Positions 46,111-64,000 of a stretch of 64,000 nt of DNA are shown in pieces. The notes below the pieces were generated by a model that was given only the letters and a program-made list of their open reading frames with translations, made no database searches and had not been told where the DNA came from. Within the stretch, counting starts at the first letter, position 1, and each line of letters begins with the position of its first letter. Position numbers and translations under genes: made by a program. Source of the DNA: Gammaproteobacteria bacterium (GTDB lineage: Bacteria; Pseudomonadota; Gammaproteobacteria; Steroidobacterales; Foliamicaceae); the NCBI GenBank assembly GCA_965213995.1, contig OZ243929.1:92134-156133 (forward strand). The letters run 5' to 3'.

Positions 46111-47253
46111 CTACGCCAGCCGCCCCAGCCACAGCGCATCCAGAAAGGCTTCCCAGGGCATCACCTCGATGCCGTCAACGAGGCGGCGCACAGGCTCCAA
46201 GCACACCAGCACATGGCGTTTGGCGATGCCTTCCTCCTCAAGCGCCGCAAGTCCGCGCCAGTCGCGGGCGCCGACGTTGGCCTTCGCCTTCACCTCGACA
46301 GCAATGCCCTGAAAAACGAAATCCACCTCGAATCCCGATTTCGACCGCCAGTAACCGGGCGGGTCAAGCTGGCGGTAGCTGCAGTACGCGGAAATTTCCT
46401 GGTGGATGAAGCTCTCGAAGGCTTCGCCGTATTCGGGCGTGCCCGGCGCCAAGCCTTGGCGGCCTTGCAGGTGCCGCGCCAATCCGATGTCGAACAAATA
46501 GTACTTCGAGGTGGAAACCGCCTTGCGCTTGCGGGTCTCCGTGATGGCCGGCATCTCGCGGGCGATGAACGTGTCCTTGAGGATGTCGTAGTAGGCTCTC
46601 GCCGTGGAGGCCGGCACCTGGGCGTCGTTCGCGAAGCTGGCGAAGTTGACCATCTGCCCGTGGGCCAAGGCTGCGGCGCGCAAAAAGCGGCTGAACGCGC
46701 CAACGTTGCGTGCCGCCGCTTCCGCCGCCACCTCTTCTTTGAGGTAGTCGCCGGCATAGGCGGCCAGATCCTCGCGGGGCGCGTCGGAGAAATAGATCGG
46801 CGGCAGCAAACCGTGCTCCAAGGCGCGATGCAGGTCGAAGCGCGCCCCCAGCTCATGCCGGGTGAAAGGGTGCAAGGCGCGGGACCGGGCGCGTCCGCCG
46901 AGCAGGTTCACGCCCTTGCGGCGCAGGCTGCGGGCGCTGGAGCCGGTCATCAGAAAGCGAACGCCATGCCGCTCGATCATCAGATGCACTTCGTTGAGCA
47001 GTTCCGGGAGTTTCTGGATATCGTCAATGACCACAAGGGAAGTTTCGGGCGTCAACGCCTCGCGGATCAGCGCCGGGTTGCGCGAGAGCCGGAGAAAGAG
47101 CGCTTGATCAAGCAGGTCGTAAACCGGGCAGCCGGCCAACTGCTGGCGGATCAGCGTGGACTTGCCGGTCTGGCGGGGGCCGAATAGGAAGCAGGACTTG
47201 CCTGCCAGCACTTCCGCAATCTGGAGATGGCGCGGCACATCGGAATGGATCAT
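46111..47253 (-). CDS. AAA ATPase with DUF4143-type C-terminal domain (second, diverged copy)
   Basis: 380 aa. FLFGPRQTGKSTLIRQ Walker A, VVIDDIQKLPELL, C-terminal ..YWRSKSGFEVDFVFQGIAVEVKAKA. Confidence 0.8.
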   Translation of the reverse strand: MIHSDVPRHLQIAEVLAGKSCFLFGPRQTGKSTLIRQQLAGCPVYDLLDQALFLRLSRNPALIREALTPETSLVVIDDIQKLPELLNEVHLMIERHGVRFLMTGSSARSLRRKGVNLLGGRARSRALHPFTRHELGARFDLHRALEHGLLPPIYFSDAPREDLAAYAGDYLKEEVAAEAAARNVGAFSRFLRAAALAHGQMVNFASFANDAQVPASTARAYYDILKDTFIAREMPAITETRKRKAVSTSKYYLFDIGLARHLQGRQGLAPGTPEYGEAFESFIHQEISAYCSYRQLDPPGYWRSKSGFEVDFVFQGIAVEVKAKANVGARDWRGLAALEEEGIAKRHVLVCLEPVRRLVDGIEVMPWEAFLDALWLGRLA

Positions 47254-48317: not shown

Positions 48318-49493
48318 ATGGATGCCCGAACCAACCCTTACGCCCCCGGAGCCGGCGCCCCCCCGCCCGAGCTGGCCGGACGCGATGAACTCATCGACGA
48401 GGCCGCCATTGCCTTGGATCGGATACGCAATGGCTTGGCGGCCAAGAGCCTGCTCATGGTGGGGCTCCGCGGCGTGGGCAAAACCGTGCTCTTGAACCGC
48501 ATCTTCCGGGATGCGGAATGCCGGGGCTTCACCACGCTCCTGCTCGAAGCGCCGGAAGGGCGCTCGCTGCCCGGCTTGCTGGCCGCGCCGCTGCACAGCG
48601 CCCTTGCGAAGATGAGCCGCCGTGCCGCTGCCGGCGATGCCGCAAGGCGGGCGCTCCGGGCGCTTGCCGGATTTGCGCGCGCCATGAAGGTCAATTTCGG
48701 CGACATCAGCATCGGCATCGATATCGAGGCAGAGCCGGGGTTTGCGGACAGCGGCCACTTGGACTTCGACCTGAGCGATCTGCTCGCTGCGGTGGGCGAA
48801 GCCGCAAAGGACCAGAACACCGCGTTCGCACTGTTTATCGACGAACTGCAATACGTTGAGGAAAGCCAGCTTGCCGCCTTGATCGCCGCCCTTCACCGCG
48901 CCGCCCAACGGCAACTCCCCGTCACGCTCATTGGCGCCGGGCTGCCCCAACTCGTAGCCCACGCGGCCGCCGCGAAATCATACGCCGAAAGATTGTTCCG
49001 CTTTCCCGAAATAGGCCCGCTGCCCGAGGATGCGGCCCGACACGCCCTTGAAGCGCCCGCCAGGAAGCGGAATGTGCTTTTTCATCCCGATGCCCTTTCG
49101 GCGATCGTGCGGCGCACGCAAGGCTATCCCTACTTCCTTCAAGAATGGGGCAAGCACAGTTGGGATTGCGCCGAGGCATCCCCGATCACAGCGCAAGATG
49201 TCGATGCGGCCACGGCGCAAGCCACCGCGGAACTGGATGCCAGCTTCTTCCGCGCCCGTTTTGATCGGCTGGCCCCGTCGGAAAAGCGCTATTTGCGGGC
49301 TATGGCGGAGCTGGGTCCGGGGCCGCACCGTTCGGGGGAAATCAGCGGGATGCTCGCCAAGGGCGTGGCAGTCGTCGCGCCGACTCGCGCCAAGCTCATC
49401 GCAAAAGGCATGATCCACAGTCCCGCCCACGGCGACACCGGCTTTACCGTGCCGCTGTTCGACGAATTCCTGCGGCGGGTGCTGCGGGATTGA
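48318..49493 (+). CDS. P-loop ATPase (Orc1/Arch_ATPase-like)
   Basis: 391 aa. LLMVGLRGVGKTVLLN Walker A, FALFIDELQY Walker B. Its stop overlaps the next ORF start (TTGA). Confidence 0.65.
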   Translation: MDARTNPYAPGAGAPPPELAGRDELIDEAAIALDRIRNGLAAKSLLMVGLRGVGKTVLLNRIFRDAECRGFTTLLLEAPEGRSLPGLLAAPLHSALAKMSRRAAAGDAARRALRALAGFARAMKVNFGDISIGIDIEAEPGFADSGHLDFDLSDLLAAVGEAAKDQNTAFALFIDELQYVEESQLAALIAALHRAAQRQLPVTLIGAGLPQLVAHAAAAKSYAERLFRFPEIGPLPEDAARHALEAPARKRNVLFHPDALSAIVRRTQGYPYFLQEWGKHSWDCAEASPITAQDVDAATAQATAELDASFFRARFDRLAPSEKRYLRAMAELGPGPHRSGEISGMLAKGVAVVAPTRAKLIAKGMIHSPAHGDTGFTVPLFDEFLRRVLRD

Positions 49494-52561: not shown

Positions 52562-52747
52562 TCAGGAAACACCATAATCTTGGAATTCCGAGTTGAGGGA
52601 GTTTCTCTTTGGGCCAGAGAATGTCTCATCTAGGCCAACCGTTTTGACGGTCGGCGGGTGCCAGGGACGTTTACGGGATTCGCCGCTGCGGTTGCCGGTG
52701 GAGTTGCGCCGATTCTGGGGGGGGGGGGGGGTGGTTGTGGTGGGCAT
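52562..52747 (-). CDS. Candidate lasso-type precursor peptide with N-terminal poly-Pro tract (type 2, in frame)
   Basis: ATG at 52747. MPTTTT-PPPP-QNRRNSTGNRSGESRKRPWHPPTVKTVGLDETF|SGPKRNSLNSEFQDYGVS*. The leader block is conserved with 57928..58126 and 63044..63235, the C-terminus is variable and the last residue is Ser. Part of track ORF 52562..52780. Confidence 0.5.
   Translation of the reverse strand: MPTTTTPPPPQNRRNSTGNRSGESRKRPWHPPTVKTVGLDETFSGPKRNSLNSEFQDYGVS
52717..52731. repeat. Homopolymer G15 (C15 on the coding strand)
   Basis: gattctGGGGGGGGGGGGGGGtggttgtggtgggcat. Confidence 0.9.
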
Positions 52748-54404: not shown

Positions 54405-55396
54405 GGCGGCTTCCCCGCCTGTTCGCCGCCGCCAACACCGGCAGGCCCGCCGAAGGCGCGCGTCGCCAAGGCGGGCCAGGCCCGTCGGAGATGCGCGTCG
54501 TTCAGGCAGGCCAGCCACGCCTCGTGCCACCAGGCATAGGCCGGATGGGGGGCGAAAGCGGGGTCGCCGTCGGTCCAGCGCAGCATGGCGGCGGCGCTCC
54601 AGGGCTTGACCGGGCCGGTGAAGTGCAGCACCTTCGCGTCCTTCGGCGCCAGCCCCTCGCGCGCCAGAATCGCCTCCCTCATGTGCAGCGGATAGTTGTA
54701 AGTCGAACTGACCAGGCTTTGCCGTCCCGCGAAGTGCTGGTTCAGCAGGAACTGGTCGTTGGTGTGGACCGTGTCCGTGCCGCGCCAGGCGTCCGGCGCG
54801 ACCCGGCCCAGCAGCTCCGCGTAGGCGCGCTCGCCCGTCAGGCGCTCGTCGATAAGCAAAAACCCGGAATTGAACGTCCGCTCCAGCGCGCCTTTCGCCC
54901 CCGCAAGGGCGGGGCTGGCGAGCGGCTGGAACGAGACGGCATCGCGGCATCCTCCTGCCATGGACACGGAATCCCCGCAGCAGATCAGCGCCTCCCGGCG
55001 GTCGAAGAGTTCCCAGACCGGGCCGCGGAACAGGAGGTCGCTGTCGCAATAGAGCACCTTGCGGTAGCCGGCGATGCGGAACGCCTCCAGGCAGTGGAAG
55101 CTGGAAAGCCACCGCCGCTTCGCCAATGGCCAGCCGGCGAAGGCGGCCAGGCGGCGTCGCAGCGCGGGGCGCACCGGCTCCGGCCGCAGCGCCGGACAGG
55201 CTCGCGCCAGCGCCGCGCGGCGCTTGGCGGACAGTCCGTTGTGGAACAGCAGCATCCCGCCGCAAAAGCCGGGATGCTGCTGTAGAAACGAATGGGCGGC
55301 GACGATGGCGCCGGGCAGGAATTTCTCGGTGGCGGCCAGCGCGATGCAAACGTCCGCTCCGCGGCCGGCCGGGATGCCTGGCGGCTTAGAAGTCAA
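54401..55396 (-). CDS. Glycosyltransferase family 8-like
   Basis: 331 aa. ..VCIALAATEKFLPGAIVAAHSF.., ..VLYCDSDLLF.. (DxD), ..FNSGFLLID... It overlaps the cyclase-2 stop by 11 nt. Confidence 0.6.
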   Translation of the reverse strand: MTSKPPGIPAGRGADVCIALAATEKFLPGAIVAAHSFLQQHPGFCGGMLLFHNGLSAKRRAALARACPALRPEPVRPALRRRLAAFAGWPLAKRRWLSSFHCLEAFRIAGYRKVLYCDSDLLFRGPVWELFDRREALICCGDSVSMAGGCRDAVSFQPLASPALAGAKGALERTFNSGFLLIDERLTGERAYAELLGRVAPDAWRGTDTVHTNDQFLLNQHFAGRQSLVSSTYNYPLHMREAILAREGLAPKDAKVLHFTGPVKPWSAAAMLRWTDGDPAFAPHPAYAWWHEAWLACLNDAHLRRAWPALATRAFGGPAGVGGGEQAGKPP

Positions 55397-57263
55397 GGAA
55401 CTGCAACGCCTGGATCAAGGGCCTGGGGCGCAGGTGGCGGCGAATGCGGGCAGGGTCGAAGTCGCCCAGCAGTTCAAGGTCGCGCGTCAGGCGGCCCAGG
55501 TTCAGGTAGCGGCCGCGCGCCGTTCCCGCGCCGCCGCCGGCGATCATCGAGCGCGCTTGCGCCAAGGTTTCGGCAAGCGCGTCCCTATAGGCCCGGTACC
55601 GAGCGGGGTCCGTTTTGTCGCGGTTCCGCAGCACCAGTTCGGGCAGCACTTCGCGCTGGGAACGCCGCATCAGCCGCCGGCTTTCGGGGCCGCGGAGGAA
55701 CTGCTCCGGCGGCAGCGCCAGGACGAATTCCAGCAGCCGGCGGTCCAGCAGCGGATAGCGGTACTCGATTCCCAGCCGCGCCCCGCTCGCGGCCCAGCCT
55801 TCGATGCGCCTGTCGATATAGCCGCTCGCAAGCAGGCCGAGCTGGACCGCTCGCGCGCCGGCCACCGGGACCGTCGGCGGCATGGGCAGCAGGCGGGCGC
55901 GGCGGGCGAAATCGGGGTGCAGGTAGCGGCCCGTCGGCGGCAGCGGCGTCTTGCCTTGGCGCAGCCGCCAAAGCGTGTCCCTCAAGGTTCTCACCGGTTC
56001 CATGGCTTGGACAAACGGCAGCGCCGCGCAGCGCGCGATGCCGAGCAGGGGAAAGCGGCGGTGCCCGAACTCGCGCCGCAGCGCCGCGAGCCGGCCTTTG
56101 CGCAAGAGGTCGGGGTGGTAGCCGCGGCCGCTGAACGAGACCCCCTCGTCGCCGCCCCAGCCGGACAGCAGCACGCCCACGCCCTGCGCCGCTGCCGAAC
56201 GCTGCACGGGGCATTCGTTGAGGTGGTAGCTGTCGTGCCGGGTCACATCGCGGCGCAAGGTCGCCAGCATATCGGCGGCAGTGGGCGGGCAGTGGTGGAC
56301 CTCCAGGCCCTCCTGGGCCGCGACCGCTTCGACAAGGCGGTATTCGCCGCCGGGAGCGGCGTCGCGGCTCCCCTCCGCCGCCTCGGGCAGCCAGGTGAAC
56401 GCAGGCGGGGCAGGGCGGCCCGCGGCCCGCAGCGCCCGGGCCGCGAGCGCCGAAACGCAGGAGGAGTCGAGGCCGCCGCTCAGATGCACGCCCACGCGGC
56501 GGGGGCCGCCCGCGCGATCCGCCACCGCGGCGGCGCACAGCGCGAGGCAGGCCTCGGCGGCTTCGCCGTCGTCGATGCGGCCAAGCGCGGGAATCCGCTC
56601 CGGATGCCACCAGCGCCGCACGCGCCAGCCGCCGGCTTGTGCCAATAGCAAGTGGCCCGGCGGCAGGCGCCGCACCGCGCGGTGGAACGTGCGTTCGCCG
56701 AACGGCCAGAAAATGTGGCGGGCAAGCCAGGAGGCGGTCGCGTCCTCGTCCAGGTCCGCCTCCACGCCGGGCGCCGCGAGCACCGCGTTCACGTCGCTGG
56801 CGAACACGATGCGGTCCGCCGCGGCGGCGTAGTAGAGCGGCCGGGCGCCAATGTGGTCCCGGGCAATAAGCAGCCGGCGGCGTTCGGCGTCCCACGCGGC
56901 GAAAGCGTAATCGCCGTACAGCCGCTGCGGACACTCCGCGCCCCATTTGCGCCAGGCGCGCAAAATCAACTCCGCGTCCGTCAGCGGCTCGTCCTTTCGT
57001 TCGGAAACGCCCAGCGCGGCGCGCAACTCGTCGCGCCCGTCGATGCGGGCGCTTGCGACCACCCAATCGCCCGCGCCGCCGCGCGCGCAGCAGGCCGCGC
57101 CGTCCGCCGCCTCATGCCCGCGCCAGCCCAAGCGGGCCGCTTCCGCCGTCCAGGCCGCGGTGGCATCTGTTCGGCGCCCCGGCAGGGCGGCCACCATGGC
57201 ATCGAGCGCCGCCGCGCCGGGGTCGCCGCGCAAGGCTTGGATTCCGCAGATCATGCTGGCCAT
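55386..57263 (-). CDS. Asparagine-synthetase-like protein, lasso-cyclase type (copy 2)
   Basis: 625 aa. MASMICGIQ (no Cys2), ..VVASARIDGRDELRAALG.., SGGLDSS PP-loop. The first ~147 codons are duplicated at 63523-63965. Confidence 0.75.
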   Translation of the reverse strand: MASMICGIQALRGDPGAAALDAMVAALPGRRTDATAAWTAEAARLGWRGHEAADGAACCARGGAGDWVVASARIDGRDELRAALGVSERKDEPLTDAELILRAWRKWGAECPQRLYGDYAFAAWDAERRRLLIARDHIGARPLYYAAAADRIVFASDVNAVLAAPGVEADLDEDATASWLARHIFWPFGERTFHRAVRRLPPGHLLLAQAGGWRVRRWWHPERIPALGRIDDGEAAEACLALCAAAVADRAGGPRRVGVHLSGGLDSSCVSALAARALRAAGRPAPPAFTWLPEAAEGSRDAAPGGEYRLVEAVAAQEGLEVHHCPPTAADMLATLRRDVTRHDSYHLNECPVQRSAAAQGVGVLLSGWGGDEGVSFSGRGYHPDLLRKGRLAALRREFGHRRFPLLGIARCAALPFVQAMEPVRTLRDTLWRLRQGKTPLPPTGRYLHPDFARRARLLPMPPTVPVAGARAVQLGLLASGYIDRRIEGWAASGARLGIEYRYPLLDRRLLEFVLALPPEQFLRGPESRRLMRRSQREVLPELVLRNRDKTDPARYRAYRDALAETLAQARSMIAGGGAGTARGRYLNLGRLTRDLELLGDFDPARIRRHLRPRPLIQALQFLDF

Positions 57264-57298
57264 TCAGTCTTCCGGGAGCGCTTCCAGGCACCGTTCGA
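56821..57298. repeat. Near-identical duplication, copy 1 (copy 2 = 63523..64000, runs off the window)
   Basis: The cyclase-2 5' end plus 35 nt upstream is repeated with only a few substitutions. Confidence 0.9.
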
Positions 57299-57424
57299 TT
57301 GCATCGGCCAACAGCAGCGGATGCCGATCCGGATTAGGAGAAAAGGCTATAGCACAGCGCACCCAACCAACTCCCACGGCGCCGCGGTGCGGGGCAACTG
57401 CAAAGCGGCCCCACATCCGTAATG

Positions 57425-57528
57425 AGGATGCGTTCCCCGCTCTCGAAAACACGGCGCGCTTTCTCGGCCTGCGCCTCGTCGTCCCTCAACAAGTAGCGGA
57501 GCAAGACATTGGCATCGACTGCGATCAC
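57425..57528 (-). pseudogene. vapC: VapC-type PIN toxin, N-terminal remnant
   Basis: The GTG at 57528 overlaps the antitoxin stop (GTGA). VIAVDANVLLRYLLRDDEAQAEKARRVFESGERILITDV; the sense then breaks at ~57425. Confidence 0.6.
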
Positions 57529-57761
57529 CGCGTTTGAGTTCTTTTGCTTTCCATCGCGCACTGAAGCGATTGCTCATCCGAAACCGCTTCGTCCGACCGA
57601 AGATGAGCAAGGCACCCCCAAGCGCTGCCGGGCTGCTGGCGGACTATGGTGATGCGTCCGTCGGCGACGAAACTTCGGCATTCATCGCCTAGCTCCATGC
57701 CAGCCAGACGACACTGGCTGGCCGGTAGCGTCAACTGCCGCTTGGCGCCGACTTTAGGCAC
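57525..57761 (-). CDS. AbrB/SpoVT-family antitoxin (VapB/MazE-like)
   Basis: 78 aa. MPKVGAKRQLTLPASQCRLAGMELGDECRSFVADGRITIV is a swapped-hairpin AbrB-type N-terminus. Confidence 0.6.
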   Translation of the reverse strand: MPKVGAKRQLTLPASQCRLAGMELGDECRSFVADGRITIVRQQPGSAWGCLAHLRSDEAVSDEQSLQCAMESKRTQTR

Positions 57762-57927: not shown

Positions 57928-58126
57928 CTAGCTTTGTTCTTCTCCAAGAAAGAATCCATATGATGGGGATTCCTCCTGAACGGCATTAAATCTGGGGGAG
58001 CCTCGCGTCTCAGTCAGTTCAACCGTTTTGACGGTCGGCGGGCGCCAGGAGCGTTTGCGGGGTTCGCCGCTACGGTTGTCGGCGGAGTTGCCCGAATTCT
58101 GGGGGGGGGGGGGGGGTATTTGACAT
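57928..58126 (-). pseudogene. Candidate lasso-type precursor (type 2), out of frame by 1 nt at the tract (candidate OFF state)
   Basis: RBS GAGGAAG, then ATG (58126) MSNT + C16. With C15 it reads PPPPQNSGNSADNRSGEPRKRSWRPPTVKTVELTETR|GSPRFNAVQEESPSYGFFLGEEQS*. As sequenced it stops after ~18 codons. Confidence 0.45.
58101..58116. repeat. Homopolymer G16 (C16 on the coding strand)
   Basis: gaattctGGGGGGGGGGGGGGGGtatttgacat. Confidence 0.9.
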
Positions 58127-58483: not shown

Positions 58484-59074
58484 TTAGACGGTGATTTTTC
58501 TCCTGATGTGGAGGGCAGCATAGCATCGGGTGGAGCTCGGACGGCGCCTTTCGGAGCGAGGGCGCAGCCCGAACGGAGAAAGGCGCCGTCCGAGCCCGGT
58601 TTTCTCCGGTGCTGCGCCCCGGCAGAGGCGCCGGGCCGCGACCCGGGCGCGGCGGCGCGCCTTCCTGCCCCGCCGACGAAGGTGACGGTGCAGCGTCCCG
58701 CCACTCGCCCGATCCTCCCAGACTTGGCGGTATATCCACGTCTTGCCCACCGACGGACCGCCCTCAAGGCGCAAACGCCCAGCGATCTGCTCAGGACTCC
58801 ACTTCAGCCGCAGCTTCCCCTCGATCCGGCCCCGCAACTCCGCCGTCAGCTTGCGCGGACGCGACGACGCCTCGCGCCGGCGAGCCTCCGACAGCCGCTG
58901 CGCCTGCTTCATCCGGTAGCCCCGAAGCCCGCCGTTGCGGCGCAACTCCCGGCTCGCCGTAGAGGCCGAAACCCCCAGCACACGCGCAACCCCCCGAATC
59001 GACTCGCCGCTTTTCCTCAGCGCGTAAATCTGGCATCGTGACCCGTAGGTCAGGTGACGGTAGCCTCTGGCCAT
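58484..59074 (-). pseudogene. IS30-family transposase, N-terminal part only
   Basis: MARGYRHLTYGSRCQIYALRKSGESIRGVARVLGVSASTASRELRRN...KWSPEQIAGRLRLEG is the IS30 HTH region. The catalytic DDE region is absent, and an 18-bp-stem hairpin (58535-58595) interrupts the 3' part. Confidence 0.7.
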
Positions 59075-59172
59075 CGAACACCCTCCTTCTTCCAATATCG
59101 GAGAGTATCGCCGTCACTTGGCCTCCTTCTCAAATCATCCGTTGCACTTCATAGTGGAACGGGCGACACTAC

Positions 59173-59469
59173 TCAATCAACTCGACGCCGCTTATCCAAC
59201 CAAGAAGGCAATTCCGTGAGTTGGCCTTTCGTTCGCTTCCTCTCACGAATAATTTTCGCATCGGACCACCACCCTGCTTCAATGATCTGGCCCTCGCGTA
59301 TCCAATAGTGTGATCGGCAAGGTATTTGCCAGTTACCAACAGAGGGATGCATTGAAACGGATTCTCCATTGAAAATCACACACCAGTGTTTCGGCCCCAG
59401 TTTCAAGGATACCCGTGTGCCACAGCCACAGCCGCAAAGATGCGCGCTTGTTCGATACTTCAAACTCAC
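59173..59469 (-). CDS. DUF6527-like small Cys-rich protein
   Basis: 98 aa. ..HLCGCGCGTRVSLKL..WCVIFNGESVSMHPSVGNWQIPCRSHYWIREGQII matches my recollection of the DUF6527 pattern (CxCGCG ... PSxG ... CxSHYxI). Last gene of the Ubl/E1 operon. Confidence 0.55.
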   Translation of the reverse strand: MSLKYRTSAHLCGCGCGTRVSLKLGPKHWCVIFNGESVSMHPSVGNWQIPCRSHYWIREGQIIEAGWWSDAKIIRERKRTKGQLTELPSWLDKRRRVD

Positions 59470-59521
59470 ATAGAGCTTGCCTAGTTCGAGAGTGGCGGGG
59501 ATGTTTTCAACGAGTTCAAGT

Positions 59522-60733
59522 TCAATTTTTATCGCTGCGATCCTTTATTGCACCATCGTAGCCTACCCAACGGCCAGACGCCACATGCAGTTTCATGCGC
59601 CTATGCCGGGGCTTGTCCAGATAGAAGCCGATTGACTGCTTCCAGGCGATGACGGCGAGCGTGGCGTTCAGCGCATTCATATCTCCGGTCTGTATCGCAA
59701 CTTCGTAAATGTCCTCGCCCAAATCCTTGCCGGGAGTTCGCTTTGCCAGATTGAGTCGTTTTTGATAATCATCATCGCTTGCGCTTCGCGTCACTCTAGC
59801 CGATGCAGTCAACCCATCGGGATAGCGATGCATGTCTATACCGGAGTCGATGAAGTTGACGCGCAATTCCGCTAACCCCGTCAAAATCTCGTGCCGGTCC
59901 GGGCCGCGATCAATGGCTACGAACACCATCGTCCTGTCCCTCAGCTGAGTTAAGTTCGATTTCTGGACACGAAGCGCCTTGCCAGTGATGTTCCGATTGG
60001 TGCGGCTCGCATAGATCCTTGCTAGATACTCGGCTTTGTTCTGACCTTCCTCGACTATGTGCTGACTAACCACCCCCGGCCATCGGAGCTGCGTATGCTG
60101 ACTAATCAAATCATCATCATATATGACGATACTTCCCACATTGCATTTAGAGATCAAATCAACGATAAATCCCCCGGTTCCGCCAGCACCGATGACAGCA
60201 AGTTTCTCCTGCCTGAACAATTGATCAAGGCCACCAATCGCGCTTCGGGTCAAACCGGTCTCCTGATCGACCATGTTGTTCCCATCAGTAATTGTCCCCG
60301 TTCCCCTTACATCCCGTTGCCATTTCTTGCCGGTTTGACGAGCGATGAATCTGGCATAGGCAAGAATTTTCTGGCCGTAGTTTGGATATCCGCTTCCCGG
60401 CGGCTTTCTGGACATGCCGCAGATGCTCACCTGGCCATTCGGCCAGCTTCGCGAGGAAGTGTCATGAATCAACTCATTGTCCAAGGGCATGCCGTCCGCT
60501 GAATATGGTTTTTCTTCAGCCACCCAATAGACGGTATGGTCACTCGGGGGGGCGATCTTTCCGCCTACCCGCTCTAGATGGCAAATCAGGCGGCCATGCG
60601 CCACACCGCCGTCGCGCTGCCGATACGGAAGCGGCCCGACTGTAAGAACGTCGCCCTCAATCTCGTAATCCAAGCCATTCTGGACTACCCGATCAAGACC
60701 TCCTTCATGATTTGTCAGTGTAGCTGACATCAA
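59522..60733 (-). CDS. ThiF/E1-like adenylyltransferase with a ~170-aa N-terminal extension
   Basis: 403 aa. KLAVIGAGGTGGFIVDLISKCNVGSIVIYDDD is the E1 Rossmann/ATP motif. The N-terminal extension carries conserved-looking Cys (..LICHLE.., ..VSICGMS..). Confidence 0.75.
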   Translation of the reverse strand: MMSATLTNHEGGLDRVVQNGLDYEIEGDVLTVGPLPYRQRDGGVAHGRLICHLERVGGKIAPPSDHTVYWVAEEKPYSADGMPLDNELIHDTSSRSWPNGQVSICGMSRKPPGSGYPNYGQKILAYARFIARQTGKKWQRDVRGTGTITDGNNMVDQETGLTRSAIGGLDQLFRQEKLAVIGAGGTGGFIVDLISKCNVGSIVIYDDDLISQHTQLRWPGVVSQHIVEEGQNKAEYLARIYASRTNRNITGKALRVQKSNLTQLRDRTMVFVAIDRGPDRHEILTGLAELRVNFIDSGIDMHRYPDGLTASARVTRSASDDDYQKRLNLAKRTPGKDLGEDIYEVAIQTGDMNALNATLAVIAWKQSIGFYLDKPRHRRMKLHVASGRWVGYDGAIKDRSDKN

Positions 60734-60947
60734 TAATCATACCCTTGGTGCAGGTTAGAATCCCACCCTCCACCAATTCCTTATCAGCACCCGTCTCGGA
60801 ATCCCGATAATCGACTTCCCATTCAATCGTTGTGCTATGCGTCACATCAGGAAACGCCTCGCAAATCAACTCTTCATAGGTCATGTTGCGTTTCACAGAG
60901 ACTTCGGTGCCATTGAGCACAATGTGCACACCTTCATTTGTATTCAC
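60705..60947 (-). CDS. Ubiquitin-like (multiubiquitin-family-like) small protein
   Basis: The GTG at 60947 is preceded by GGAGGG (11 nt after the upstream stop). (M)NTNEGVHIVLNGTEVSVKRNMTYEELICEAF... is an ~80-aa beta-grasp-like pattern. The track ORF (to 61046) would overlap the upstream gene by 88 nt. Confidence 0.55.
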   Translation of the reverse strand: MNTNEGVHIVLNGTEVSVKRNMTYEELICEAFPDVTHSTTIEWEVDYRDSETGADKELVEGGILTCTKGMIIDVSYTDKS

Positions 60948-60958
60948 TATTTTCCCTC

Positions 60959-61843
60959 CTATCCGATGTATTTCAATTCGGAACGCTGCACCGTTCCACC
61001 GCTGAGGCTCATTCGGGCCAACACCCACTGGGCCATTTTTTGCCAATGCCTCGTTTCGTTTTCTGTTAGCCGTGGTCCAAGTGTGATGTCCATTTTCTTC
61101 AGCGAAGTTCCCACCTGTATCGGCCTTTCGATAAATGTTCTCAACCTGCCACTGGTTGCGTCCAAGCGAACCCCCTTTCCTCTCGCCGCAAGAATTGCGC
61201 CGCTTTCGTCACCCAGAAAGCAGGCCAGTCGAACCTCGCGTTCTGACTCGTAGTCGGTGTGCTTATGTTTTGCCTCTAGCCGCATTCTGCGTTTCCGAAT
61301 CATTTCCCGATCCGATTGACTTTTCCCGTGATCTGCCTGACTTTGCAATAAGGATTCAGCTTCGCGCTTGATATTGTCTGTATCCTTAGTATATTCCACT
61401 TGTATGATCTCCAAGCCATCAATTCGCTGGAGATGTGCGGCATCCCACCAAGTCGTAATCGCGACTCCCTTCCCGTCATCTCCGTAGGCACGCCACATAT
61501 CCAGCCGATTAGCCGCCTCACCCTTTTTGCCGCTTTGGGGCTCGGTGCCGCACATCAAAAAGCTGTCGTCTGGCACTGTGTCTCTGCGTCTTTCGCCGGA
61601 CTTGCTCATCGTCACGTCAGATACGTATTCAGCGATCGTCTGCTCCGTGGGATCATTCATCCCCGAGCGACTGTACAAGCGCAGCGTAACATCGGGTGGG
61701 CCTTTCAGCCGGTCCTTTCTGTCAGATGACAGCTCTCTCAGCCATCCATCGAGTATCGAAGCCGCAGCCGCCTGACTCGTGAAATGTGTAATTCCCGTGA
61801 GCAAGATCTCCTCTTGCCCCTCTTTAGCGTTTTTCTGCGCCAT
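60959..61843 (-). CDS. DUF2971-like protein
   Basis: 294 aa. ..GITHFTSQAAAASIL.. and ..SGMNDPTEQ.. resemble the (Y)HYTS / NDPxE motifs of DUF2971. First gene of the operon. Confidence 0.5.
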   Translation of the reverse strand: MAQKNAKEGQEEILLTGITHFTSQAAAASILDGWLRELSSDRKDRLKGPPDVTLRLYSRSGMNDPTEQTIAEYVSDVTMSKSGERRRDTVPDDSFLMCGTEPQSGKKGEAANRLDMWRAYGDDGKGVAITTWWDAAHLQRIDGLEIIQVEYTKDTDNIKREAESLLQSQADHGKSQSDREMIRKRRMRLEAKHKHTDYESEREVRLACFLGDESGAILAARGKGVRLDATSGRLRTFIERPIQVGTSLKKMDITLGPRLTENETRHWQKMAQWVLARMSLSGGTVQRSELKYIG

Positions 61844-61941
61844 CGATACCTTCCGAGTACTGCTACCAAATCGGTGAATGATTATGCATCATTCACATCA
61901 GTAATCCTCAATTCAAGCAAGTTCCCTATAAGCTCTTGCTT

Positions 61942-62700
61942 TTACTGATTGTTCTGCAGTTTCACCCGGTACGCCAGATGCTGCATACAGGCGAACGCCA
62001 TGAAGGCGATGGCCAGATGGGCGCGGATGCGTTTCGGGGTCCAGTGGAAGATGGGCCGCACCTTCAGGTCGTGCTTGTTGACGCGAAAGCCGTGCTCCAC
62101 CCGCCACAGGCCGCGGTAGCGCTCCCACAGCTCGGGCCGCGGACATTGGTGGCCGCGCCGCGCAAGCCGTCCCAGCGGGCGGCCTCGGCGATCTTGTCCG
62201 GGGCGACCTCCCAGCGGCCTTCGCCGCGCATCCGCAAGAATCGGCCCATTCCCTTCGGCAACAGGGATTTTGGCTTGCCGCTCTTGTTGAGCTTGTCCAG
62301 CAATCGCTTGACCCCCCGCTGCCGATCCTTTTTGCCCTTGGCCGCCCGTTTCGGACTGTGCGCCACCACGATGCGCCGGCCGCAGTGGCGGAACACGGCG
62401 ACTTTGCCGCCCGCCTCCATCGCCGCCGCCCCCGGTAACGGCCCGTTTCCACAATCCGCTCCTTCAATGGCTTCGGCAGCGACTGCAAACGCGCCCCGAC
62501 GATGTAGCGGTGCCCTTCGGATTCCAGACCGGCCAGGTTATCCCCGCCGAACATCCCCGCGTCGGCCACGCACACCGCCTCGAGCCCCGGATGCCGCTCG
62601 CGCATCTCCGCCATCATCGGCAAAAAGGTCCTGTCCTCGTATTGCGCGCCGGGGAACACCCCGTACCCCACCGGCCCGCCCCGCGCATGTCAAGCATCAA
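61942..62700 (-). mobile_element. IS1634/IS4-type transposase, 3' part, frameshifted
   Basis: Readable across three frames: ..GYGVFPGAQYEDRTFLPMM..VCVADAGMFGGDNL.., ..FRHCGRRIVVAHSPKRAAK.., ..YRGLWRVEHGFRVNKHDLKVRPIFHWTPKRIRAHLAIAFMAF... The N-terminal half is missing. Confidence 0.6.
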
Positions 62701-63043
62701 TAATCACTAGGCAGAACAAAACGGGTCCCGGAAACCCGCCAGGAAAACCCGAACAAAATCAAACGGGTACGAAAATGGAAATCGCGGTCAGGCGGCTAAA
62801 CCGTCGAAGTCATGATGACGTCCGGCTCCGCGCCGAAAGGGGCCGGGTGGAACGGAACGGCGATTTCGGAATGGAAGATCAGCTCGTAGGCGGTGTTTGC
62901 GGCAACGGCTCCGGTGCGGTCACTGGGCTTTTCCTCAAGGACGGTGTTCATGCCCTGTCATGCTGTTGAAAGTAGCTGGCACCTGATGGCACCAGTCTCC
63001 CCATGGTCCGACATGATGGGGCCCGAACAGGACACCAAGCCAA

Positions 63044-63235
63044 TCAGGAATCCTGCAAAAAGTATTCACCAAATTCGGTTGATAAGCTCGAATTATCACC
63101 AGATCGGGTCTCCCCTAGGTTGACCGTTTTGACGGTCGGCGGGCGCCAGGAGCGTTTGCGGGGTTTCTCTAGAAATTCAGGGGGGGGGGGGGGGGGGGGG
63201 GTAAGGTTGCGATTCTTGTTAGGCCGGGATCTCAT
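63044..63235 (-). CDS. Candidate lasso-type precursor, hybrid (type-1 N-terminus + type-2 leader/core), in frame
   Basis: RBS AGGAGG, 9 nt, then ATG (63235). MRSRPNKNRNLT-PPPPPPP-EFLEKPRKRSWRPPTVKTVNLGETR|SGDNSSLSTEFGEYFLQDS*. Part of track ORF 63044..63289. Confidence 0.5.
   Translation of the reverse strand: MRSRPNKNRNLTPPPPPPPEFLEKPRKRSWRPPTVKTVNLGETRSGDNSSLSTEFGEYFLQDS
63180..63201. repeat. Homopolymer G22 (C22 on the coding strand)
   Basis: aaattcaGGGGGGGGGGGGGGGGGGGGGGtaaggttgcgattc. Confidence 0.9.
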
Positions 63236-63392: not shown

Positions 63393-63965
63393 TCAGGCCC
63401 GCTCCACCTCGAACGCCGCCAAGTTGCGGTCGGACTTGCTGAATTCGACGGCGACCAGGTGGATCGGCTCGCCCAAGGCGCGGTACTTCCCGGCGTAGTC
63501 CCTGGCTTTCAACTGCGCCATCGCGGCGGCGTAGTAGAGCGGCCGGGCGCCAATGTGGTCCCGGGCAAGAAGCAGCCGGCGGCGTTCGGCGTCCCACGCG
63601 GCGAAAGCGTAATCGCCGTACAGCCGCTGCGGACACTCCGCGCCCCATTTGCGCCAGGCGCGCAAAATCAATTCCGCGTCCGTCAGCGGCTCGTCCTTTC
63701 GTTCGGAAACGCCCAGCGCGGCGCGCAACTCGTCGCGCCCGTCGATGCGGGCGCTTGCGACCACCCAATCGCCCTCGCCGCCGCGCGCGCAGCAGGCCGC
63801 GCCGTCCGCCGCCTCATGCCCGCGCCAGCCCAAGCGGGCCGCTTCCGCCGTCCAGGCCGCGGTGGCATCTGTTCGGCGCCCGGGCAGGGCGGCCACCATG
63901 GCATCGAGCGCCGCCGCGCCGGGGTCGCCGCGCAAGGCTTGGATTCCGCAGATCATGCTGGCCAT
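63393..63965 (-). pseudogene. Chimeric ORF: first ~147 codons of the cyclase fused to the C-terminal tail of an unrelated (PD-(D/E)XK / AAA-ATPase-like C-terminal type) gene
   Basis: Identical to cyclase 2 up to ..ARPLYYAAA, then MAQLKARDYAGKYRALGEPIHLVAVEFSKSDRNLAAFEVERA*. The junction is at ~63523. Confidence 0.7.
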
Positions 63966-64000
63966 TCAGTCTTCCGGGAGCGCTTCCAGGCACCGTTCGA
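63523..64000. repeat. Near-identical duplication, copy 2 (copy 1 = 56821..57298)
   Basis: See 56821..57298. It extends to the window edge. Confidence 0.9.

Follow-up and report, generated by a model that had tools for sequence, protein, structure and literature searches.

The subject of this analysis is a cassette of four genes on the minus strand of a gammaproteobacterial contig (OZ243929.1 of assembly GCA_965213995.1, positions 92,134 to 156,133; this whole stretch of 64,000 nucleotides (nt) is called the window). The genes encode, in this order, a protein with a DUF2971 domain, a small ubiquitin-like protein (Ubl), an E2-E1 fusion and a DUF6527 protein (Table 1). An earlier note drawn from the sequence had described four tightly packed open reading frames (ORFs) at this site and proposed a variant ubiquitination-like defence or signalling module with an uncharacterised effector or sensor. 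The ORFs are present at the coordinates it gave and the ubiquitination-like module was confirmed, but the core is no uncharacterised variant: judged by sequence, bubA, bubBD and bubE make up a textbook example of the already described Type II Bub operon. The finding is thus real and its core is known, while the DUF2971 gene has no counterpart in the published Bub description.

Table 1. Genes of the cassette and transposase remnants on either side of it (window coordinates; aa, amino acids)
Feature	Position	Strand	Remarks
DUF2971 gene	61843..60959	minus	294 aa from ATG 61843; Pfam PF11185, E = 2.3e-11
bubA (Ubl ORF)	60947..60705	minus	80 aa from GTG; Multi_ubiq only sub-threshold, E = 0.008
bubBD	60733..59522	minus	403 aa; Pfam DUF6791, residues 13-134, E = 1.5e-19; ThiF, residues 168-299, E = 3e-8
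bubE (DUF6527) ORF	59469..59173	minus	98 aa from GTG 59469; PF20137, E = 1.4e-21
bubE, full-length frame	59532..59173	minus	119 codons; ATG of the orthologues is ATA here
IS30-family transposase remnant	58484..59095	minus	downstream flank; Pfam HTH_38, 5e-12; NCBIfam IS30, 3.7e-21
IS1634-family transposase remnant	61913..62703	minus	upstream flank; NCBIfam IS1634, 2.2e-13 and 5.7e-20

Assignment of the core genes to Type II Bub

The operons formerly termed “6E/DUF6527” (6E.2) have been renamed Bub in two bioRxiv papers of 2024, one from Ye et al. and one from Gong et al. (10.1101/2024.11.21.623953 and 10.1101/2024.11.21.623966). Type II Bub operons comprise BubA, BubBD and BubE and typically have no JAB peptidase (10.1101/2024.11.21.623953, 10.1101/2024.11.21.623966). 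The absence of such a peptidase, which the earlier note had listed as unusual, is therefore typical of the class; we found no JAB/JAMM domain in the cassette or in the flanking ORFs scanned.

The GTG start of bubA is preceded by GGAGGG-N6 (GGATAGGAGGG). The gene overlaps bubBD by 26-29 nt, and an overlap of 26 nt is conserved in the orthologues, which were called at 80-86 aa. When a profile (A1) built from the small ORF together with six orthologues was compared with the sequences in the PDB, it matched the third of the beta-grasp domains in the crystallised Type II BubA of E. coli ZDHYS365 across all 80 aa (9cd2, E = 5e-11). Both the start and the beta-grasp-like nature that had been proposed for this ORF were thus substantiated. 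The E. coli protein ends in ..TQTDKS and the window protein in ...DVSYTDKS, with T77, D78, K79 and S80 invariant among the orthologues. To extend this comparison, we used 51 other full-length Type II Bub loci from GTDB species representatives, from which two loci without a detected BubA and two with mis-picked ORFs were excluded. BubA ended in Ser in 47 of the 47 loci scored, mostly in the form ..T-[DN]-[KR]-S, an ending also seen in the characterised BubA of E. coli and not an author-stated definition of Type II. A Ubl ending without Gly, at first taken as a peculiarity of this locus, is therefore the usual state.

BubBD had been recognised as a ThiF/E1 adenylyltransferase, and both the ThiF Pfam domain and an end-to-end alignment with E. 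coli BubBD bear this out (BLASTP against the sequence from the supplement of the paper: residues 2-380, 29% identity, E = 9e-41). The N-terminal extension of about 170 aa, which had been noted as Cys-containing, is likewise real; by homology to the E. coli protein, it appears to be an E2-type domain (about residues 1-135; H66, S108 and K122) in which the conserved nucleophile is Ser108 and not a Cys. It is followed by the E1 adenylation domain (about residues 165-385) with G182xGGTG187, R217, D275 and Y343. In the alignment, S108 fell on S106 of the E. coli protein (MSRKPP / FSNKPP), H66 on H66 and R217 on R219. Conjugation was abolished in the E. coli adenylation mutant R219A, in Y342F of the E1 crossover loop and in the E2 mutant S106A (10.1101/2024.11.21.623953, 10.1101/2024.11.21.623966); R217 and S108 align with the first and the last of these residues. 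Y343 is the putative Tyr of the crossover loop; it is invariant in the relatives, and the supplement text of the E. coli sequence contains reading errors around Y342. Across 21 relatives, supplemented by a wider set of 24 diverse N-terminal domains, H66, S108, G182, G184-G187, R217, D275 and Y343 were invariant and K122 nearly so. An AlphaFold2 model of BubBD (predicted local distance difference test, pLDDT, 79) found its best PDB matches in BubCD of Citrobacter (E about 3e-14), ahead of MccB, UBA5, Atg7 and ThiF. In this model, the N-terminal domain consists of a helix, a four-strand meander, the loop with S108 and a further helix.

The Cys-rich DUF6527 protein had been considered as a possible E2-like fold. 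Its alignment with BubE of Citrobacter and E. coli instead revealed a conserved zinc site (C33/C35/C37/C72) and a Ser-His dyad (S64/H75, full-length numbering), matching Citrobacter C57/C59/C61/C99 and S92/H102. On this alignment, the protein is a C4-zinc Ser-His protease and not an E2, the latter residing in the E1 protein. The BubE of Citrobacter takes off BubA conjugates as a weak Ser-His protease dependent on zinc (10.1101/2024.11.21.623953, 10.1101/2024.11.21.623966).

The closest known counterpart is thus the Type II Bub operon of E. coli ZDHYS365 (9cd2), which likewise lies on mobile DNA, has the same three genes in the same order and lacks a JAB gene. The two operons share the ..TDKS end of the Ubl, the E2-E1 fusion with its Ser/His/Lys E2 site, adenylation Arg and crossover Tyr, and the DUF6527 protease with Ser-His dyad and C4 zinc site. 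They differ in that E. coli BubA has three beta-grasp domains and the window BubA one, and in that the window operon has an upstream DUF2971 gene and has lost the start of bubE. Type I Bub of Citrobacter sp. RHBSTW-00271 (BubAB/BubCD/BubE; PDB 9ea4, 9eae and 9eav) provides the best structural match of the E1 fold and has BubE and the oxyester chemistry, the latter predicted for the window proteins, in common with the window operon. However, its JAB is fused to the E1 and its Ubl to the E2, the latter fusion being cleaved after Gly. In the window operon, the E1 carries the E2, a JAB is absent and Ser is the last residue of the Ubl. The Type I/II operons of Bil (bacterial ISG15-like) also conjugate a Ubl and are linked to phage defence, but they encode separate E1, E2 and JAB proteins, employ thioester chemistry and have a Ubl ending in Gly. 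Type II CBASS (cyclic oligonucleotide-based antiphage signalling system; CD-NTase, a cGAS/DncV-like nucleotidyltransferase, with Cap2 and Cap3) shares the E2-E1 fusion, a deconjugating peptidase, an enzyme partner with a small C-terminal residue (Gly/Ala) and the overall scheme of conjugation and reversal. It differs in its cysteine-dependent Cap2 with an Atg7-like E1, its JAB peptidase, its partner, which is a CD-NTase, and the lack of a separate Ubl. We therefore rejected membership of the cassette in a CBASS-like class: Ser108 and Tyr343 replace the catalytic cysteines, and neither a JAB peptidase nor a CD-NTase is present. PADLOC, which contains no model for Bub, yielded only weak E1-E2 (CBASS Cap2) matches to the nucleotide-binding region and weak PDC-S31 matches to the DUF2971 protein.

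A DUF2971 gene linked to Bub

The first gene of the cassette stops 11 nt before the start of bubA, and its product ends in ..SELKYIG. The match to PF11185 scored 45.3 bits against a cut-off of 22, and 25 of the 25 subfamily members matched as well. In total, 30 homologues were gathered, all of which matched DUF2971 where scanned. Translation may begin at TTG 61804 (281 aa) instead of ATG 61843, since the DNA homology to orthologous cassettes begins at 61799. DUF2971 has been described in a Legionella survey as a predicted ADP-ribosyltransferase (ART) family that resembles DarT and AbiGi and in which a Tyr and an ExE motif are conserved (PMC12522546). Among the 25 subfamily sequences, H20, Y120, E201, E203, R205 and G294 were invariant, and we infer that H20, Y120 and E201/E203 correspond to the published motif His (I, a variable one), Tyr (II) and ExE (III), which occur in the expected order. 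One member of the family, Aristaios, is a single-gene antiphage protein of the Abi type encoded on a lactococcal plasmid (PMC11381338). Aristaios and the window protein (316 vs 294 aa) both carry the Pfam DUF2971 domain with conserved Tyr and ExE-type motifs (Y120 and E201/E203 in the latter), yet they are distant in sequence and have only this Pfam-level domain in common. Furthermore, Aristaios stands alone, whereas the window protein sits in a conjugation operon and has a subfamily-specific Gly/Ala C-terminus. The AlphaFold2 model of the window protein (pLDDT 78.5; predicted template modelling score 0.79) had low confidence in the last four residues. A profile of the DUF2971 proteins found nothing among the sequences in the PDB.

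That the DUF2971 partner is a real gene was supported by related cassettes, in which it is conserved, and the question of whether the four families co-occur could be answered in the affirmative. The order DUF2971, Ubl of 80-86 aa, BubBD and BubE, the last wherever it was present or could be read, recurred in loci L001-L007, L011-L015 and L087; the BubBD proteins of these metagenomic loci and metagenome-assembled genomes (MAGs) were 81%, 78%, 67%, 61%, 55% and 53% identical to that of the window. L011 (JAJECW010000092.1, 81% identical) has an intact bubE. Even the much more divergent cassettes L089, L092 and L093 keep the four-gene order, and the genes of linked cassettes are separated by 11-20 nt or overlap. 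An exhaustive hidden Markov model search of 1.84 billion representatives returned 16 DUF2971 proteins at E < 1e-30, with a sharp drop after them, and every inspected locus of a relative with E < 1e-24 proved to be a Bub cassette. In a neighbour-joining tree of BubBD, all DUF2971-linked proteins formed one clade, within which a single nested member (L008) lacked the gene. Among Type II Bub loci as a whole, the association is confined to a minority: DUF2971 lies directly upstream in 5 of the 51 at species level and in none of the 125 found on plasmids. The subfamily is absent from the plasmid collection and BubBD from the phage collection. The Bub papers and their supplements make no mention of DUF2971 (10.1101/2024.11.21.623953, 10.1101/2024.11.21.623966). 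The four-gene DUF2971-Bub sub-lineage with its Gly/Ala-ended partner thus appears to be undescribed in the searchable literature.

Several related loci showed features of their own. In L087 (6080-7228), the public gene call is a 382-aa minus-strand gene, whereas tblastn detected an intact plus-strand bubBD (61% identical) followed by bubE, indicating that precomputed annotation can hide the cassette. L008 and L009 (10486-12993) lack DUF2971 and have an unrelated gene of 158-178 aa upstream. About 3 kb away, the same loci harbour a second Ubl operon (Multi_ubiq of 248 aa, Prok-E2_E and Prok-JAB+ThiF), so that two conjugation systems lie side by side. The neighbours of the cassette include Mrr_cat/ResIII, AbiEi, a STAND NTPase and a PARIS-like pair of AAA_15/21 and DUF4276 in L006, an HTH-SNF2-NOV_C helicase and a DUF1156 protein in L001, and the type I restriction protein HsdR in L092. 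The Aristaios family, the weak PDC-S31 matches and such defence-type neighbours of orthologous cassettes count in favour of a link to defence.

The C-terminus of the DUF2971 protein deserved separate attention. All 38 of the 38 intact Bub-linked proteins end in Gly (36) or Ala (2), and this ending is kept in five lineages with otherwise diverged tails (..Y[IVL]G, ..EVSRG, ..LRMA, ..GYKA and ..KNRG). In contrast, only 6 of 130 other DUF2971 relatives (4.6%) end in Gly/Ala, though the S-x-h-x-Y motif ahead of the tail is present in them too. The downstream ribosome-binding site does not dictate the terminal Gly, since L007, in which that site is separate, still ends in GGT. E1 enzymes adenylate a small residue at the C-terminus, as in the CD-NTase that is ligated by Cap2 in Type II CBASS. 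The small residue may thus point to a ligation of the DUF2971 protein itself. Two related candidates were rejected. A hidden beta-grasp domain related to BubA in the DUF2971 C-terminus found no support in hhalign (probability 0.2%). An apparent 378-aa “DUF2971-Ubl fusion” ending in ..SYTDKS (P0072, a 16,895-bp contig) resulted from a frameshift, either a sequencing error or a pseudogene, and is out of frame after ..TIGP, from where it runs on into the Ubl gene.

Mobility and integrity of the window copy

The cassette is visibly poorer in guanine and cytosine (GC) than its surroundings, as had been pointed out before: its GC content is 0.522 as a whole and 0.50-0.56 across the genes, compared with about 0.72 in the host and 0.70-0.77 in the preceding 3 kb (upstream of 57200). 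The insertion sequence (IS) remnants reported on both sides were matched by the NCBIfam models IS30 and IS1634. The IS30 remnant comprises the N-terminal helix-turn-helix part (profile positions 1-110 of 267) without the catalytic domain, and its GC content is host-like (about 0.72). The IS1634 remnant is frameshifted, as its two matches (profile positions 182-253, 2.2e-13, and 372-432, 5.7e-20) lie in different reading frames. The closest cassette, from a Pseudomonadales MAG, is 82% identical at the nucleotide level, and the similarity spans 61799 to 59173, that is, exactly the gene borders. Based on the GC content of 0.52 vs 0.72, the IS remnants at both ends and the homology that stops at the gene borders, the island is in all appearance a horizontally acquired copy of the Bub operon. 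In several high-GC hosts, the cassette also has a lower GC content than its flanks, which fits repeated horizontal transfer, perhaps assisted by IS elements. A full-length IS1634/DDE_Tnp_1 transposase adjoins the orthologous cassette of L006 (7935-9620); this element is 74% identical in nucleotide sequence to the window remnant (61949-62686), but is located on the opposite side of the cassette. These observations hint that the IS1634 family might move the cassette.

Further traces of rearrangement surround the island. A direct repeat of 479 nt (56820-57298 and 63522-64000, 99% identity) reaches the end of the window. It contains the 5′ end of an asparagine-synthase-like gene with 35 nt of upstream sequence; the left copy is part of an intact 625-aa gene (55386..57263) and the right copy belongs to a gene truncated at 63522. 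Roughly 6.2 kb lie between the copies and contain the entire island, and such a repeat is what either a single-crossover integration or an IS-mediated duplication would leave. Moreover, an element of 60-110 nt, in which GACCGTTTTGACGGTCGGCGGGCGCCAGGAGCGTTTGCGGGGTT is followed by a run of 14-20 G, occurs in three copies with 77-100% identity (52619-52731, 58003-58115 and 63104-63165), two of which bracket the IS-Bub-IS segment; it had no Rfam match. A small minus-strand ORF (57525..57761), AbrB/SpoVT-like as judged by its sequence and without a Pfam or NCBIfam match, overlaps a 75-aa ORF that matches only the first 35 positions of the PIN domain (E = 0.008). This region (57334-57761) looks like the remnant of a vapBC-type toxin-antitoxin pair that was cut off beside the repeat boundary at 57298. 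No tRNA genes or Rfam families were detected in or near the island. A few kb upstream, an AAA_16/STAND-like ATPase (48318-49493) and a DUF4143/AAA_14 ATPase (46111-47253) are encoded among sulfotransferase and epimerase genes.

DUF2971, bubA and bubBD are intact in the window, and bubE has lost the usual start codon. Orthologous bubE genes start with an ATG located 11 nt before the stop of bubBD; in the window, ATA stands in its place (59532-59530). Translation from GTG 59469, which is the first canonical start, would leave out 21 residues that are conserved up to the E. coli and Citrobacter BubE proteins, including the invariant P12. Because of this lost start and the loss of the conserved residues, BubE is probably poorly made or truncated in the window. 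The first gene is preceded by an AT-rich spacer of 98 nt and by no regulator gene. A consensus scan of the window cassette for promoters and terminators gave no convincing promoter match, and the upstream regions of the DUF2971 gene in six loci shared neither a promoter nor an operator. Within this spacer, about 20-35 nt before ATG 61843, the minus strand holds an inverted repeat of 7 bp (GAATGAT-N5-ATCATTC, 61861-61879) that could be an operator, but it is not conserved upstream of the orthologues.

It could therefore be asked whether the window cassette is decaying and without function, having only been carried along by IS activity. The altered bubE start, the fragmentary state of both flanking transposases and the short upstream spacer without a regulator or a convincing promoter fit this explanation. 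On the other hand, the three remaining genes are full length and have kept all conserved residues, the defect of bubE consists of a single base change, and translation might reinitiate at a non-AUG codon that lies 11 nt ahead of the stop of bubBD. We consider decay less likely than not, and compatible with the Bub identification itself.

Role of the DUF2971 protein and alternative explanations

Taken together, the cassette is probably best explained as a Type II Bub operon of a sub-lineage with a fourth, co-inherited gene, whose DUF2971 product would be the output switched by BubA and BubE. The chemistry of the core pathway has been demonstrated in the homologues from E. coli and Citrobacter and is transferred here to the window proteins. 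A BubBD dimer would adenylate the C-terminal carboxylate of the 80-aa BubA (...TDKS), which would then move as an oxyester onto Tyr343 of the crossover loop and from there to Ser108 of the fused E2 domain, assisted by His66 and Lys122, before being joined to the amine of a target. BubE, as a zinc-stabilised Ser-His protease, would take off the conjugates. In this sub-lineage, the DUF2971 protein may act as the effector that is switched by BubA conjugation and BubE deconjugation; in the window copy, the negative regulator BubE would probably be weakly made or truncated.

Several observations weigh against this explanation. The ART fold of the DUF2971 protein was not recovered: Foldseek searches of the PDB and BFVD gave nothing below E = 0.02, and a lenient Pfam scan of 25 subfamily members detected no ART, DarT or AbiGi family at E <= 10. 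Lacking a Foldseek match and an ART family in Pfam, the ART assignment stays second-hand. The E2 fold of the N-terminal domain of BubBD was not seen independently either, as all Foldseek matches fell on the E1 part and a profile of the E2 domain found nothing below E = 0.08 among PDB sequences. The DUF2971 gene is not needed for Bub function in general, since only those five of the 51 loci carry it. The lost bubE start and the missing regulator gene cast doubt on whether the window copy works. Its neighbours in the window are sulfotransferase, epimerase and asparagine-synthase genes and not a defence island, and the authors of the Bub studies saw no phage protection from any Bub operon (10.1101/2024.11.21.623953, 10.1101/2024.11.21.623966). 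A defence role of the cassette is our inference.

Alternatively, BubBD might act on the DUF2971 protein itself. The C-terminal Gly/Ala of this protein would be adenylated and ligated to a target or to BubA, as Cap2 does with the CD-NTase, and the effector would thereby be primed or localised, so that the system would do more than tag targets with a Ubl. The Gly/Ala ending of all intact Bub-linked proteins, its independence of a ribosome-binding site, the E2-E1 fusion architecture common to BubBD and Cap2, and the low-confidence last four residues of the model, which fit a free tail, are in agreement with this idea. However, BubA with its terminal Ser is the demonstrated E1 substrate in E. coli. 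The window encodes a BubA as well, which means that its adenylation pocket is fitted to a ..KS tail, and hhalign detected no similarity of the DUF2971 C-terminus to the Ubl. In addition, the lineages are related, so that the counts overstate their independence, and the idea was derived from sequence comparisons. We thus consider a direct substrate role unlikely. An extended version, held to be just as doubtful, is that BubBD handles two substrates, BubA and the Gly/Ala tail of an ART-like DUF2971 toxin; the toxin would be armed or localised by ligation to BubA or to a target in the cell or the phage, and BubE would reverse the modification. If true, a two-substrate BubBD would represent a hybrid of Bil-like Ubl tagging and Type II CBASS-like effector ligation, and an effector and a biological output would for the first time be identified for the Bub pathways.

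Alternatively, the DUF2971 gene might be an independent single-gene defence or toxin gene of the Aristaios kind that merely travels with Bub in one lineage. Aristaios indeed works alone (PMC11381338), other DUF2971 genes occur in unrelated contexts such as the type III restriction-modification locus in L090/L091, and 46 of the 51 Type II loci do without the gene. Yet every subfamily member with an inspected locus adjoins Bub, the spacing of the genes is operon-like, the gene was co-inherited through a deep clade with a single loss, and the Gly/Ala C-terminus is specific to the subfamily, all of which makes chance companionship improbable. Finally, the reading of the E1-like protein as a ThiF/MoeB sulfur-carrier adenylyltransferase with a ThiS/MoaD-type carrier, which the earlier note had named as the possible refutation and for which the ThiF domain could be adduced, was rejected as practically untenable, given scores of 13-22 bits for the NCBIfam ThiF, MoeB and UbaA models (cut-offs 159-450), a small protein that is a BubA homologue ending in ..DKS and not in GG, the fused E2-type domain, the DUF6527 protease and BubCD as best fold match.

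The biochemistry of the Bub pathways has been characterised, and their discoverers have so far reported no protection against phages. Should the coupling to DUF2971 not be real, the island would be one more IS-borne copy of a known operon. A monophyletic Bub sub-lineage tied to DUF2971, a family with one experimentally antiphage member (Aristaios, acting by abortive infection), nevertheless offers a concrete candidate effector. A real coupling would connect Bub with defence or with the control of a toxin, and would show how an oxyester-based Ubl pathway regulates an enzyme.

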